A stretch of 64,000 nucleotides of DNA from a bacterium (GTDB taxonomy: Bacteria; UBA8248), in NCBI GenBank assembly GCA_965200245.1, contig CBDATS010000005.1:256001-320000 (forward strand), read 5' to 3'. The notes below the pieces were generated by a model. That model worked only from the letters and a program-made list of their open reading frames with translations, was not told where the DNA came from and did no database searches. Shown in pieces: positions 13,385 through 58,768 of the stretch; the stretch's first letter is position 1, and each line of letters begins with the position of its first letter. A program made the translations under genes and the position numbers.

Positions 13385-14044
13385 TTATCTCGACTTCATG
13401 CCGTATTTCTCGTACTTCTTTGCCGAGGCTGAACTGCGCTTGGCGGATTCGGGCGTTTTGAGCTCCAACAGATAGGGACGCTCGACCGATGTGGCACTCA
13501 CGGCGTCAAGGAGCCCCTGCTCGTCGCCCTCTTTCTCCCAGTCACCCTCTTCCAGCTTGACGAATACAGGCTTGCCTTCTCCCAAATCGAGCGTGGGGAC
13601 GCCGAAGATGCCTTGATCGGCCGCTTCTTCATGTTCTTGCGCGATGAGAGGAATCGTGGCGCCACTTTTCATATCCTCTTCCCAGCGAGCGACGTCAAGA
13701 CCCACATCCACGGCGATATCGCGCAGCACCAACTCGCTGGTGATGTCCTTTCCGTCCCTGTGCTTCGCCCGGTGTAGCGCCACGTGGTATCTGTCGAATT
13801 GCGTCTCGCCTTGCAAGGCCGCGCATTTGGCCGCCTGATGCGGGGGGAGGTCCCTGCTCGGGAAAGTCTGATCTTCCCAAGCCTTCCAGTCCTCGCCGCG
13901 CGTGGGGCCGAAATTCGCCTGCTCCAGCACAAAGGCCTTGTAACTCACTTTCAGACCGCTTCTTTTCCCCTGGAGACGAACGAGCCACTCCATGGCTCTG
14001 TAAGCGTAGGGTCAGACATAGCAGTTCCACATGACGAGGTTCAT
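13385..14044 (-). CDS. DsbA/FrnE-like thioredoxin-fold selenoprotein (Sec at codon 11, TGA 14012-14014)
   Basis: AAGGGAG RBS + ATG 14044 gives MNLVMWNCYV-TGA-PYAYRAMEWL, in frame with the 202-aa ORF; cis-Pro motif GIFGVPT; hairpin downstream of TGA. Confidence 0.85.
13980..14001 (-). promoter_or_regulatory. Putative SECIS hairpin
   Basis: AC-A(bulge)-GAGCCAU-GGA-GUGGCUC-GU, spanning +11 to +32 after the UGA. Confidence 0.6.
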
Positions 14045-14155
14045 GGTTTTTCTCCCTTAAAAACAAGTTATCAAGGAATATGGCGAGCCAATGATACACC
14101 ACAAGAAAGCAGATGAAAAAGCGGAGCAACGCCTTTTGAGTATAGCTTATTCCCA

Positions 14156-14755
14156 CTAGCCATCAGATGCGAGCGCCTTGTTGAGGAGTGCCTCCGCACC
14201 AGCATTCATCGAAATCTCCCTGGCGACCTCCCGCCCGCGTGGAGACATCTTCCGCCATGTTTTCCGCAAGATACCTATAATTTTCTCTTCATCATGAAGA
14301 CGGGAGAAATCCCAAAAATAGCTCTCCAGAAACACCAGGCAGGCGACATCCTCAAGTGTCTGGGTTTCCGGGTTTGTTTTTATACCCTGCTTTTTGAGCA
14401 GCATCCGCACGCGATCTATCACATCCCCTTCATAACCCACCTTTTCCAGTATCTCGGCCACTTTTTCGCCGTGATAGTCGTACAGGCGGGTGCGCCATTG
14501 GTGGTACCCCTTCCTGTCCAGAGGATAACTCGAACGAGGAATCTCCCACCGGCGTATGTGTTGGCCCCTCACCGCCAAACAGAGGGTCTCGGAAGCGTGT
14601 GGCTCGATGGTTTGGAGCCATTTCGTCATTCTCATCGAATACAAAAACTCTTCAGGATAATCTTCGCCTTCAAATTTCTCGAAATTCGGGTCCCGTAAGT
14701 TCGCCTCGTCTATAAGACGCATAGCTTCTTCAAATCGGCCAGGGTTTTCACTCAT
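14156..14755 (-). CDS. DUF4202 family protein
   Basis: IDEANLRDPN, QHIRRWEIPRSSYP..RKGYHQWR, LEDVACLVFLE, KTWRKMS. Confidence 0.88.
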   Translation of the reverse strand: MSENPGRFEEAMRLIDEANLRDPNFEKFEGEDYPEEFLYSMRMTKWLQTIEPHASETLCLAVRGQHIRRWEIPRSSYPLDRKGYHQWRTRLYDYHGEKVAEILEKVGYEGDVIDRVRMLLKKQGIKTNPETQTLEDVACLVFLESYFWDFSRLHDEEKIIGILRKTWRKMSPRGREVAREISMNAGAEALLNKALASDG

Positions 14756-14869
14756 GATGAGGAACCTTCTTCGTAATGTTGGACACTCAAAATCATTCCT
14801 GAACAACACGACCCAATAATAAACACCTGTTCGGGTTGACAAAAGCGTGCGATCGGAATATTTTTCAAA

Positions 14870-14894
14870 GTTGTTAATTAATTCAGTCAACAAT
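14870..14894. promoter_or_regulatory. Imperfect palindrome resembling an Rrf2/IscR-type operator
   Basis: GTTGTTAATTAATTCAGTCAACAAT between divergent DUF4202 and cobA; TTGACA at about 14836. Confidence 0.45.
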
Positions 14895-14929
14895 GAAAGG
14901 GAAACCACTCTCCAAACAGGAATATCTCT

Positions 14930-56159: not shown

Positions 56160-56939
56160 ATGGTCATGAGTATTTTGGGGCTTTTAGAGAACTTTCTGCT
56201 CTATCACCCCTACCGGGAAATCGAAGTAACTCCCCGAAACTACGGCATCTCGTATGAGAATGTCTCTTTCAGAGCCGCAGACGGCGTTCGCCTGCACGGC
56301 TGGTACGTCGCATCGAAAGACCCGGATGGCCCGGTACTGTTCTGGGCGCACGGCAACGCGGGTAATCTCTCTCACCGCGCGGAAAATATCGCGCTCATCC
56401 AAAAAGAACTGGGAGCGGGCGTTTTCATCTTCGACTACCGGGGTTATGGGAAAAGCGAAGGAAGACCGGGTGAGGAGGGCCTCTACGCCGACGCCCGGGC
56501 CGCGTACAAGTGGCTCATCGATCGCATATCGCCGGAGCGCGTCTTTCTCTTTGGCCGTTCTTTGGGCGCGGCGGCAATGACCAAGCTCGCTATGGAAGGC
56601 AAGGAAGCACGCGGCCTGATTCTCGAGAGCCCTTTCGAGAACACCCTCGCCATGGGAAAGAAAATGTTCCCATTCCTTCCAGTCGGGTGGCTCGTCTCCT
56701 CCAAATTCGACAATGCATCCATGCTCCCGAAAGTGGAGTTGCCCCTGTTCATCCTGCACGGGGACAAGGACGGGATCGTTCCTTTCGCTCAAGGGCGAAG
56801 ACTCTACGAATCGGCGGGCTCAAGGCATAAACGCTTTTTCACTATCAGGGGAGCGGGCCACAACGACACGTATTTTTCAGGGGGCGCCACATACTGGGCG
56901 GCGTGGCGGGATTTTCTGACAAATCCCGAATCAGGGTGA
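56160..56939 (+). CDS. Alpha/beta hydrolase (membrane-anchored; start uncertain)
   Basis: HGNAGN, DYRGYG.SEG, GRSLG, HG..D, GHND. Confidence 0.88.
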   Translation: MVMSILGLLENFLLYHPYREIEVTPRNYGISYENVSFRAADGVRLHGWYVASKDPDGPVLFWAHGNAGNLSHRAENIALIQKELGAGVFIFDYRGYGKSEGRPGEEGLYADARAAYKWLIDRISPERVFLFGRSLGAAAMTKLAMEGKEARGLILESPFENTLAMGKKMFPFLPVGWLVSSKFDNASMLPKVELPLFILHGDKDGIVPFAQGRRLYESAGSRHKRFFTIRGAGHNDTYFSGGATYWAAWRDFLTNPESG

Positions 56940-57737
56940 ATCAGGGGCCGGTTCCGTTTTTCCGGCTCTGCGCCTCGCGCGAAACTCCTGCAGCAACCTT
57001 TCATGATTCACGCTCGACAGGAAATTCTCGACGAATGCGTCCGCGGGTCGTTTGATGAGATTTTCGGGCGTATCGATCTGGACGATCGCGCCGTCTCGCA
57101 TCACGGCGATCCGGTCGGCAATCTGGAAAGCATCGGACAAATCATGCGTCACGAGCAGGCTTATCGCCCCGATTTCATCGTGCACCCTTCTCAACTCCTT
57201 TCGAACATCGAGTCTGGCGACCGGATCGATGTTCGCCAGAGGTTCATCGAGAAGAAATACCTGCGGGGGAACGGCAATGGCGCGGCCGATAGCGACTTTT
57301 TGCTGCTGGCCCGCGCTCAGGCTGTCCGGTCGGCGACGGGACCATTTTTTGCTGATGCCCAGACGCCGCATCACGTCTTGTGAACGTTCGTTCAGAATGC
57401 CCGGTAGCCAGCGCCGGATTTTAAGTGCGAAGTTCAGGTTCGAGTATTTCTTCTCGTCGCAAACCCGCATGTGCGGCCAAAGGGCGTAGCTCTGGAAAAC
57501 AAGCTGCACCCCGCGCCGACCGGGCGGGATACCGTTCAGGCGCTGGCCGTCGAAATAAATATGGCCGCCGTCTTCATCTTCTACTCCTGCAATGAGGCGC
57601 AAGAGCGTCGATTTGCCGCATCCCGTGGGACCCACCATCACCACGAACTCCCGATCCTCAAGCACCAGGGAAAGATTATCGACTGCGCAAACGTCGTCGA
57701 AATTTTTCTTGAGTCCAGAAATCGTCAGACGGCTCAT
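56931..57737 (-). CDS. ABC transporter ATP-binding protein (MalK-like)
   Basis: GPTGCGKST, LSAGQQQ, LLDEP, VTHD. Confidence 0.9.
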   Translation of the reverse strand: MSRLTISGLKKNFDDVCAVDNLSLVLEDREFVVMVGPTGCGKSTLLRLIAGVEDEDGGHIYFDGQRLNGIPPGRRGVQLVFQSYALWPHMRVCDEKKYSNLNFALKIRRWLPGILNERSQDVMRRLGISKKWSRRRPDSLSAGQQQKVAIGRAIAVPPQVFLLDEPLANIDPVARLDVRKELRRVHDEIGAISLLVTHDLSDAFQIADRIAVMRDGAIVQIDTPENLIKRPADAFVENFLSSVNHERLLQEFRARRRAGKTEPAPDSP

Positions 57738-57754
57738 GACTCGCTCCGGCCCGT

Positions 57755-58120
57755 TCAGTCTCTGGGCACCAGTTCGTTCAGTTTCTTAACGCCGGGGGTG
57801 AATATCTCCTCCAAAACGAGCGGTCCATCGCCTGCGTTGCGCGTGGAATGCTCCTGGTTCGGCGGAAATATCACGACGCCACCCGGTCCGAGCACCACCT
57901 CCCTTGCGCCACACGTGAACCTCGCCGTGCCTTCGAGCACGATGGTCATCTGCTCGTTCGGATGCGAATGGGGGTTGTACATGTCCACGCCGGCGCGAAT
58001 CGTCTGGCGAAGTACGGTCAGGCGCTCGCCAGCCACCACACGCATTTCCCTCTCGCCAGTATCGTGCGCTTCCATCTCCTCGAAATGATAGTATTTCACG
58101 CTCTTCTCCAACTGATTCAT
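57755..58120 (-). CDS. Cupin domain protein
   Basis: HSHPNEQ..VLEG, PPNQEH, IFTP. Confidence 0.85.
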   Translation of the reverse strand: MNQLEKSVKYYHFEEMEAHDTGEREMRVVAGERLTVLRQTIRAGVDMYNPHSHPNEQMTIVLEGTARFTCGAREVVLGPGGVVIFPPNQEHSTRNAGDGPLVLEEIFTPGVKKLNELVPRD

Positions 58121-58246
58121 GAAACTTTACCGAAAAATGAACTTCGGGATCTGAAAATAACCCGATCCATCGTATAGAAGTATTTGCATCCGCTCAAACC
58201 TTCTCCTAAAGTGTCATGAGATCGCTCTACATTTTTGGAGAAAACC

Positions 58247-58768
58247 ATGAAGCGAACCCTTATCTGCATAGTCGCCGTCGCAATTCTCGCCGCGTTCTGG
58301 ACGTTCCACCAGGTCGGCGCAGCGGGACTCGGACCGGGCGCGCGCGCACCCGAACTCAGGGGCGGTCCCTGGCTAGGCGGTGAACCCTTGAAACTCGCCG
58401 ACCTGCGTGGCAAGGTCGTTCTGATCGACATGTGGACGTTCGCCTGAATCAATTGCGTGCGGGAGATCCCCACGCTGCGTTCGTGGCACGAACGCTACAA
58501 GGACAAGGGGCTGGTCGTCATCGGAAACCACGCACCCGAGTTTGACTTCGACAGGAAAAAAGAAAACGTCGCAGACGCCATGGCCAAACTCGGCATCAAA
58601 TACCGCGTCGTGCTGGACAACGATTTCACCAACTGGGACGCCTTCAAGAATCGCTTCTGGCCGACGAAATACCTGATCGACAAAAAAGGCATCGTGCGCT
58701 TCAAGACGATCGGCGAGGGTAACCACGCACGCACCGAGGCGCTCATCGTGAAGCTGCTCGCAGAGTGA
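58247..58768 (+). CDS. Exported TlpA/DipZ-like thioredoxin selenoprotein (UxxC; TGA 58445-58447, codon 67)
   Basis: Signal peptide, APEL..WL, LRGKVVLIDMWTFA-TGA-INCVR, H.PEF..., N.FWPTKYLID; the two ORF-track pieces are in one frame. Confidence 0.92.
58455..58475 (+). promoter_or_regulatory. Putative SECIS hairpin
   Basis: GCGUG-C(bulge)-GGG-AGAU-CCC-CACGC, spanning +8 to +28 after the UGA. Confidence 0.6.

Follow-up and report, generated by a model that had tools for sequence, protein, structure and literature searches.

The window analysed here, 64,000 nucleotides (nt) in length (positions 256,001 to 320,000 of the forward strand of contig CBDATS010000005.1, assembly GCA_965200245.1, GTDB lineage Bacteria; UBA8248), carries five genes, g1 to g5, that are each interrupted by an in-frame UGA and are candidates for selenoprotein genes. 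An initial annotation had listed six such TGAs in these five genes and proposed that they encode selenocysteine (Sec, U). A sequence check found all six of them present and in frame, the minus-strand positions given there being the lowest coordinate of the codon. Each of the five loci forms one open frame once TGA is read as U, and profile searches showed that the Pfam domains of g1-g5 extend across the first TGA (Table 1). Every gene also has an ATG start of its own, as had been claimed; the accompanying count of four clear ribosome-binding sites was too low, since a GGAG-like Shine-Dalgarno motif lies upstream in 5/5 genes. The g2 product is 154 amino acids (aa) long with both of its UGAs read and 131 aa with a stop at the second one, and the true stops of g3 and g4 are TGA codons at 39958 and 54819, respectively. 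In g5, the Pfam models AhpC-TSA (PF00578, E=3.9e-13, 49.9 bits) and Redoxin (PF08534, E=3.7e-11, 43.5 bits) both score above cut-off, the NCBIfam ResA model matches with E=2.3e-17, and a hydrophobic leader is present at the N-terminus.

Table 1. Candidate selenoprotein genes of the window, their in-frame UGA codons and the predicted SECIS (selenocysteine insertion sequence) hairpins.
Feature	Position	Strand	Remarks
g1, predicted DsbA-like selenoprotein, 219 aa	13385..14044	-	motif CYV-U-PYA (UxxA); Pfam DSBA E=1.3e-17, residues 6-154
g1 predicted Sec-UGA, codon 11	14012..14014	-	in-frame TGA; same in X3 contig
g1 predicted SECIS hairpin	13976..14005	-	stem GAGCCAU/GUGGCUC, loop GGA; -10.4 kcal/mol
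g2, predicted DUF442/TIGR01244-type (PTP-fold) sulfur transferase selenoprotein	29625..30089	-	Pfam PF04273 (BLH_phosphatase/DUF442)
g2 first UGA, predicted Sec at P-loop Cys	29802..29804	-	motif VH-U-KGVRRAG
g2 predicted SECIS hairpin	29763..29795	-	GGCGAGC-CGGGAUUU-GCUCGUU; -9.9 kcal/mol
g2 second TGA, in place of conserved Trp	29694..29696	-	context DFD-U-ENS
g3, predicted DsbA/FrnE-like selenoprotein, 220 aa	39298..39960	+	motif YT-U-PFC; Pfam DSBA E=1.2e-26
g3 predicted Sec-UGA	39349..39351	+	in-frame TGA; aligned with FrnE first Cys
g3 predicted SECIS hairpin	39364..39384	+	GCCACC-GUC-GGUGGC; fold and orthologue comparison
g4, predicted DsbA-like selenoprotein, 227 aa	54819..55502	-	motif YH-U-PWA (UxxA); Pfam DSBA E=1.4e-13
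g4 predicted Sec-UGA	55458..55460	-	in-frame TGA
g4 predicted SECIS hairpin, core	55427..55443	-	GGCCGC-GGC-GCGGCU; -12.5 kcal/mol (extended form)
g5, predicted secreted AhpC/TSA-TlpA/ResA-like redoxin selenoprotein, 173 aa	58247..58768	+	motif FA-U-INC
g5 predicted Sec-UGA	58445..58447	+	in-frame TGA; TGC in two other-phyla orthologues
g5 predicted SECIS hairpin	58455..58475	+	GCGUG(C)GGG-AGAU-CCCCACGC; -12.1 kcal/mol

Conservation of these codons was followed in 41 genomes per query: the genome itself, 22 others from its genus, 2 from elsewhere in the family, 9 related at the order or class level and 7 outgroups. Orthologues in all 22 genus members, and in more distant relatives, retain the first TGAs of g1-g5, and coordinates on single contigs show conserved synteny of the five genes throughout the genus. 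At a threshold of 50% identity, the in-frame TGA is present in 33/33 orthologue rows for g1; for g3, 31 rows with at least 68% identity have it, as do 9 rows near 40%. Of the 31 g4 rows with at least 46% identity, 30 have the TGA and the remaining one begins after the site; the carriers include all 22 genus genomes as well as members of the family and class. The g2 gene occurs as two paralogues per genome and the TGA is retained in 46 of 47 match rows; g2 matches occur in 24/24 family genomes and none was obtained in the 16 genomes outside the family. The g5 TGA is found in 31 orthologue rows and is absent from two orthologues of other phyla (L148 and L149), where TGC (Cys) occupies the Sec codon, giving C-I-N-C. 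Moreover, the TGAs of g1 and g2 appear unchanged in X3, a sponge-metagenome assembly produced independently in another study. X1, probably the sample of the window's own assembly, was left out as support.

That the first TGA sits at the catalytic Cys, as the initial annotation had stated, is borne out by homologues with Cys opposite U in the alignments of g2, g3 and g5. The first U of g2 is aligned with the P-loop Cys of structures 2f46_A and 3gxg_A and stands opposite Cys in 8/9 Cys-type homologues (alignment A1, from an exhaustive HMMER search), while the U of g3 is aligned with the first Cys of the FrnE CPWC motif (5cp1_A). For g1 and g4, the Sec-at-Cys assignment is a probable one, resting on an x-U-P-[YW]-A-Y motif common with g3, the coverage of the site by Pfam DSBA and one U/U BLAST pair. 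As a specificity control, in-frame stop codons spanned by paralogue alignments were scanned throughout the genome: 29/36 TGAs were opposite Cys or Sec, compared with 0/18 TAG or TAA codons opposite Cys in the same scan.

A bacterial SECIS was taken as a stem-loop directly 3' of the UGA with an apical-loop G at a fixed distance. Hairpins of -9.9 to -12.5 kcal/mol follow the first UGA in 5/5 genes, and their first loop G lies at +21 (g1), +19 (g2), +22 (g3), +21 (g4) and +18 (g5), in agreement with the 18-22 nt originally described. The folds and sequences are also consistent with the described GCC at +16, found at +16 to +18 in 4/5 genes, and with the three single bulges, at +13 (g1), +15 (g3) and +13 (g5). 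The GGA-loop hairpin of g1 is kept in 5/5 family-to-class orthologues. That of g2 recurs in 12/12 orthologues and in 11/11 further orthologues and paralogues, and at these 11 further loci an element GGCG(A/G)GCC-GGGAUUU-GCUCGCU is common to both paralogue groups. In g3, the stem is unchanged in 10/10 orthologues with the third loop base alone varying, and one class-level homologue of unrelated sequence adopts the same hairpin fold. The g4 hairpin is invariant in 10/10 genus orthologues and shows a compensatory G-C to U-A change (GGCCGC/GCGGCU to GGCCUC/GAGGCU) in 3 class-level orthologues. The g5 hairpin is kept in 10/10 genus orthologues, and another hairpin is used at the class level. When 10-12 orthologues from the genus are compared for each gene, the stems hardly change while flanking synonymous sites vary. 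Counting only degenerate codons with an invariant amino acid, 19/57 synonymous sites vary in the 13 codons after the UGA versus 387/645 elsewhere (Fisher p=1.3e-4). Genome-wide, a SECIS-like hairpin of -9 kcal/mol or better with G among its first two loop bases follows 37/49 Sec-UGAs versus 102/300 random in-frame positions (Fisher p=6.5e-8; Mann-Whitney p=7e-9), and the loop G peaks at +18 to +22.

The machinery for Sec insertion was found in the same genome. Profile searches identified selA (501.8 bits) and selB (391.9 bits) side by side on contig 4 and selD (338.6 bits) on contig 8, the latter with one in-frame TGA of its own, together with a single tRNA-Sec (selC; anticodon TCA, 75.9 bits) on contig 8; all four score above curated cut-offs. 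TGA is nevertheless the commonest stop codon, ending 1252 of the 2510 open reading frames (ORFs) of at least 300 codons, so that the absence of global recoding asserted by the initial annotation holds. Of the refutations that the initial annotation had named, none came about: the Sec genes are present, X3 has the TGAs of g1 and g2, and homologues show Cys at the first UGAs. Combined with the codons, their conservation, the hairpins and the Cys residues of homologues described above, we infer that Se is incorporated at the five UGAs. In the proposed mechanism, the UGA at a redox or catalytic Cys position would be decoded as selenocysteine by Sec-tRNA(Sec) via SelB, which would bind the SECIS hairpin starting ~7-16 nt after each UGA. 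The enzymatic roles are likewise predicted: g1, g3 and g4 would be DsbA/FrnE-like thiol-disulfide oxidoreductases (U-x-x-C in g3 and U-x-x-A in g1 and g4), g5 an exported TlpA/ResA-like redoxin (U-x-x-C), and g2 a DUF442 (PTP-fold, rhodanese-like) sulfur transferase with a P-loop Sec.

Several observations weigh against this interpretation or qualify it. Contigs of an RNA library (X6) span 13300-13889 and a few other pieces, none of which contains the UGAs, and the X8 contigs likewise lie outside the TGAs. Residue-level Cys alignments cover g2, g3 and g5 only. Since the three DsbA-like genes are homologous and their GCC at +16 is one and the same Ala codon, common ancestry accounts for part of the 'shared architecture' of the initial annotation. 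Suppressed synonymous variation is seen in every gene except g1, where 7/11 sites vary. The hairpin criteria are met by 34% of random coding positions, which makes a hairpin alone weak evidence, and as a filter they pass 200 of 558 candidate TGAs. No Rfam SECIS family matched in the window at gathering thresholds, where two tRNAs were the only matches; bacterial SECIS elements are too varied for Rfam models. Finally, the estimated contamination of the metagenome-assembled genome (MAG) is 8%.

If the in-frame TGAs were nonsense mutations or assembly errors, the five loci would be pseudogenes or split genes and the truncating annotation would be correct. Genes interrupted in this ordinary way do exist in the genome (18 cases with TAG or TAA and ~7 with a non-Cys TGA), and one TGA of the window, at 29694, is probably of the nonsense kind. 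However, the five first TGAs occupy the same codon in the 22 genus genomes and in family and class relatives down to ~50% identity, with protein conservation on both flanks. They also stand exactly at catalytic Cys positions with conserved hairpins following, and X3 agrees on those of g1 and g2, which leaves disruption of the genes extremely improbable. As for recoding of UGA to a residue other than Sec, insertion of Sec and of Cys at a SECIS-dependent UGA is indistinguishable by sequence alone. There are descriptions of bacteria in which selC-like tRNAs recode UGA to Cys, and a tRNA-Sec-like Cys tRNA, or a changed code specifying Trp or Gly, could in principle produce the pattern observed. 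By contrast, the selA/selB/selD pathway is complete here, the only TCA-anticodon tRNA is typed as tRNA-Sec, TGA is the commonest stop, and relatives use TGG for conserved Trp residues. In addition, the TGAs spanned by paralogue alignments concentrate opposite Cys or Sec and are not scattered over many residues. Insertion of another residue is thus very unlikely, if slightly less so than disruption of the genes. Taken together, we consider that g1-g5 are genuine bacterial selenoprotein genes with SelB- and SECIS-dependent UGA recoding, with a probability of about 0.9.

The second TGA of g2, at 29694, calls for a different reading. Five UGA-recoded genes are upheld, but not the sixth UGA as a Sec codon. 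TGG (Trp) occupies this site in 22/22 close orthologues and paralogues (11/11 and 11/11), the paralogue of the same genome included, indicating that a single transition turned TGG into the TGA. No hairpin satisfying the SECIS criteria follows it, the sole fold being an AU-rich stem with the loop CAAG ~27 nt downstream. The codon is also present in X3 and is therefore real, and in a whole-window comparison with a relative it was the only species-specific TGA in a real coding frame. It thus appears to be a TGG-to-TGA change confined to this species, and it most likely acts as a nonsense or read-through codon rather than Sec, which would truncate the g2 protein by 22 residues or permit low-level read-through. 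A similar change is seen in a xanthine/uracil-type permease gene (G000:C5:468776-470071; L117/L160) that is intact except for one TGA at codon 100: orthologues of 12 other genomes are without the stop, and 5/5 codons inspected are TGG (Trp), making this a second species-specific TGG-to-TGA change. Special tolerance of UGA at Trp codons was considered for both sites and dropped. Alignments of paralogues across the whole genome span 10 TAG and 8 TAA interruptions (Gln to TAG and Glu to TAG, for example), which suggests a fair number of pseudogenes in a symbiont-type genome, and with these 18 against ~7 non-Cys TGA interruptions ordinary nonsense mutation suffices to explain 29694. There are nonetheless reasons to ask whether g2 is a two-selenocysteine gene. 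In 8/8 distant Cys-type DUF442 homologues (motif GFECD, alignment A1) Cys falls in exactly the 29694 column, which counts against a simple nonsense codon. The 22 codons downstream are open with similarity to orthologues about equal to the rest of the protein, assemblies of two independent studies contain the TGA, and a two-Sec gene does occur in the genome (the contig 8 AhpC/TSA gene with the motif U-P-Y-U). Against this, all the close relatives have Trp, neither Cys nor Sec, the hairpin is missing, the permease acquired its TGA at a site where Sec would be senseless, and similar TAG and TAA interruptions are found elsewhere in the genome. We regard a second Sec in g2 as unlikely. A broader proposal seems to us equally doubtful, namely that DUF442 and a CoA-transferase-family protein (see below) are uncatalogued Sec families and that the DUF442 gene has, in one species, acquired from TGG a second translated UGA in a Cys column, read as Sec or leaky Trp; if true, g2 would capture the birth of a new recoding site.

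The five genes belong to a much larger predicted selenoproteome in this sponge-associated MAG with Nitrospinota-labelled relatives. We counted ~53 selenoprotein genes in the 3.68 Mb genome, in line with the unusually large selenoproteome predicted from the window. The count started from 558 TGAs flanked on either side by sequence with coding potential, paired by within-genome BLAST, and the candidate frame was required to be the best of six; the dicodon coding score is weak alone, the antisense frame also scoring high. Pfam was searched with g1-g5 and with 47 read-through ORFs from the rest of the genome, and paralogues were added by tblastn, some of them accepted on a U/U alignment to a Pfam-scanned member. 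The search covered Sec codons more than 30 codons from the C-terminus, so 53 is a lower bound. The Pfam models for GRDB and SelD end before or start after the U, and one CMD match is slightly below cut-off (22.6 vs 23 bits). Candidates c151, c114, c547, c078, c090, c545, c133 and c137 were rejected as adjacent genes, with a domain that ends before or starts after the TGA. The classes comprise 13 CMD/AhpD-like (CxxU), 7 UGSC, 5 OsmC-like, 5 DsbA-like, 4 AhpC/TSA-redoxin (one U-P-Y-U), 3 deiodinase/Prx-like, 2 DUF442 and 2 rhodanese proteins, GrdA, GrdB and 3 GrdB-like proteins. Single representatives are Grx-DinB, an ArsC-family and a Trx-like protein, Ogt, DUF3179, SelD and the CoA-transferase-family protein. 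With 5 genes versus 0.92 expected per 64 kb, the window shares the maximum density with one span of contig 8. The counted genes are pairwise no more than 74% identical. Stretches that are 100% identical were seen on different contigs (G000:C4:127088-128254 and C5 near 835793; C4:1540641 and C8:721), consistent with repeats or with the 8% contamination of the MAG.

Some members of this set merit separate description. The CoA-transferase-family (PF01144) protein (G000:C2:331661-332473; L102/L154) has its in-frame TGA in the motif TEHA-U-ASVLAG. Of 18 genomes searched, 17 from the genus have orthologues that retain this TGA; a paralogue with 50% identity has Cys at the U position, and a strong hairpin (-17.4 kcal/mol) follows. 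The AhpC/TSA gene with two UGAs three codons apart (W-U-P-Y-U; G000:C8:308318-308830, L175) adjoins a U-P-Y-C paralogue at C8:307663-308160. Glycine reductase selenoproteins are encoded at G000:C5:575391-578649 (GrdA, Pfam E=9e-59; GrdB, E=8e-119), and three shorter GrdB-like selenoproteins lie elsewhere in the genome, which is notable for a Nitrospinota-labelled MAG. The DUF442 Sec paralogue of g2 (L094; PF04273, 43.1 bits) is located directly downstream of an OsmC-like selenoprotein gene (G000:C5:487129-488296), giving two adjoining recoded genes. Three paralogous ORFs that lack a Pfam match (G000:C5:392852-393382, C15:51771-52574 and C4 near 730317) carry TGA within AV(A/V)A-U-EKTxHEGHE, and a fourth copy has Gln at the TGA position; this TGA may either encode Sec or mark a conserved boundary between genes.

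Other features of the window were also recorded. Downstream of g5 on the plus strand are a cytochrome b561 gene and a molybdopterin-oxidoreductase gene (58765-60851), a gene order that may resemble MsrQ/MsrP-type envelope repair systems. Two tRNA genes (Rfam RF00005) lie at 42520-42591 and 61571-61642 (+). At 24327-24752 (-), a 142-aa remnant of an acetamidase/formamidase-family gene is flanked by two full tandem paralogues (23392-24330 and 24882-25874). Its in-frame TGA at 24425 is opposite Cys of the paralogues, lacks a SECIS and comes with a weak Pfam match (E=1e-4), and the remnant is probably a decayed third copy.

Selenoprotein-rich marine and symbiont bacteria are a known phenomenon, and high counts have been reported for this lineage. 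According to PMC13326102, the ten largest selenoproteomes of BSepDB hold 46-63 genes (Table 2 therein); among them are those of three MAGs, with 48-54 genes, that bear the labels Nitrospinota, Nitrospinaceae or Nitrospinae (GTDB UBA8248). The ~53 genes counted here, by our own criteria and not those of BSepDB, fall within the range of that top ten. Relatives of the present genome carry the same NCBI labels as those MAGs, and its sequence occurs in sponge metagenomes. The large selenoproteome is therefore genuine, though organisms of this kind were already known to have one. What the genome does offer is a clean case of gene callers truncating ~fifty redox genes. As the initial annotation had anticipated, 22/22 database matches for g2 are fragments of 84-95 aa ending at the UGA.

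The window genes resemble catalogued families to different extents. A 2026 review (PMC13188914) lists 119 families in its Table 1, including DsbA-like form 1 (PF01323, UxxC), Prx-like and redoxin selenoproteins. Like DsbA-like form 1, g3 has a DSBA domain with Sec at the first CPxC position (U-P-F-C) and can be aligned with FrnE. By contrast, g1 (U-P-Y-A) and g4 (U-P-W-A) have Ala in place of the resolving Cys, so that their single-Sec UxxA motif differs from the UxxC motif of that table. With Prx-like (PF00578) and redoxin (PF08534) selenoproteins and TlpA/ResA-type reductases, g5 shares the domain, a U-x-x-C motif (U-I-N-C) and the leader, but it scores below every NCBIfam curated cut-off (best ResA, 63 bits vs 170), indicating a distinct subfamily. 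The 119-family table has no entry for DUF442, PF04273, TIGR01244, a phosphatase or a CoA transferase, although supplementary tables of BSepDB and primary surveys could list them, and a literature search returned no paper pairing 'DUF442' with 'selenocysteine'; the DUF442 and CoA-transferase selenoproteins are thus apparently uncatalogued families.

The closest known system for g2 is the DUF442/TIGR01244 domain that forms the N-terminal part of Blh (compare 2f46 and 3gxg), with which it shares PF04273 (28.1 bits vs a gathering cut-off of 26.1) and a P-loop motif of the H-C-x-x-G-x-R type. PMC5823870 describes the Blh DUF442 domain as a demonstrated sulfur transferase with a PTP fold. Unlike Blh, g2 would have Sec for the catalytic Cys and is a stand-alone 154-aa protein with no fusion to a persulfide dioxygenase. 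It matches the NCBIfam models for the Blh sulfur-transferase domain (E=1.9e-17) and TIGR01244 (E=9e-12) while missing their equivalog cut-offs (63.2 vs 625 bits and 45.2 vs 85.85 bits, respectively). These scores are consistent with a divergent, stand-alone DUF442 form, for which sulfur-transferase activity is suggested by analogy with the Blh domain. In a sulfur transferase that bears Sec, the intermediate would be of the selenopersulfide type, a point of mechanistic interest. The novelty of the present set is modest, then. Beside the UxxA variants of DsbA-like proteins, it consists of two apparently new family candidates: the CoA-transferase-family protein and a PTP-fold DUF442 protein with a predicted P-loop Sec, present as two paralogues per genome and with its SECIS kept in 24/24 family genomes.

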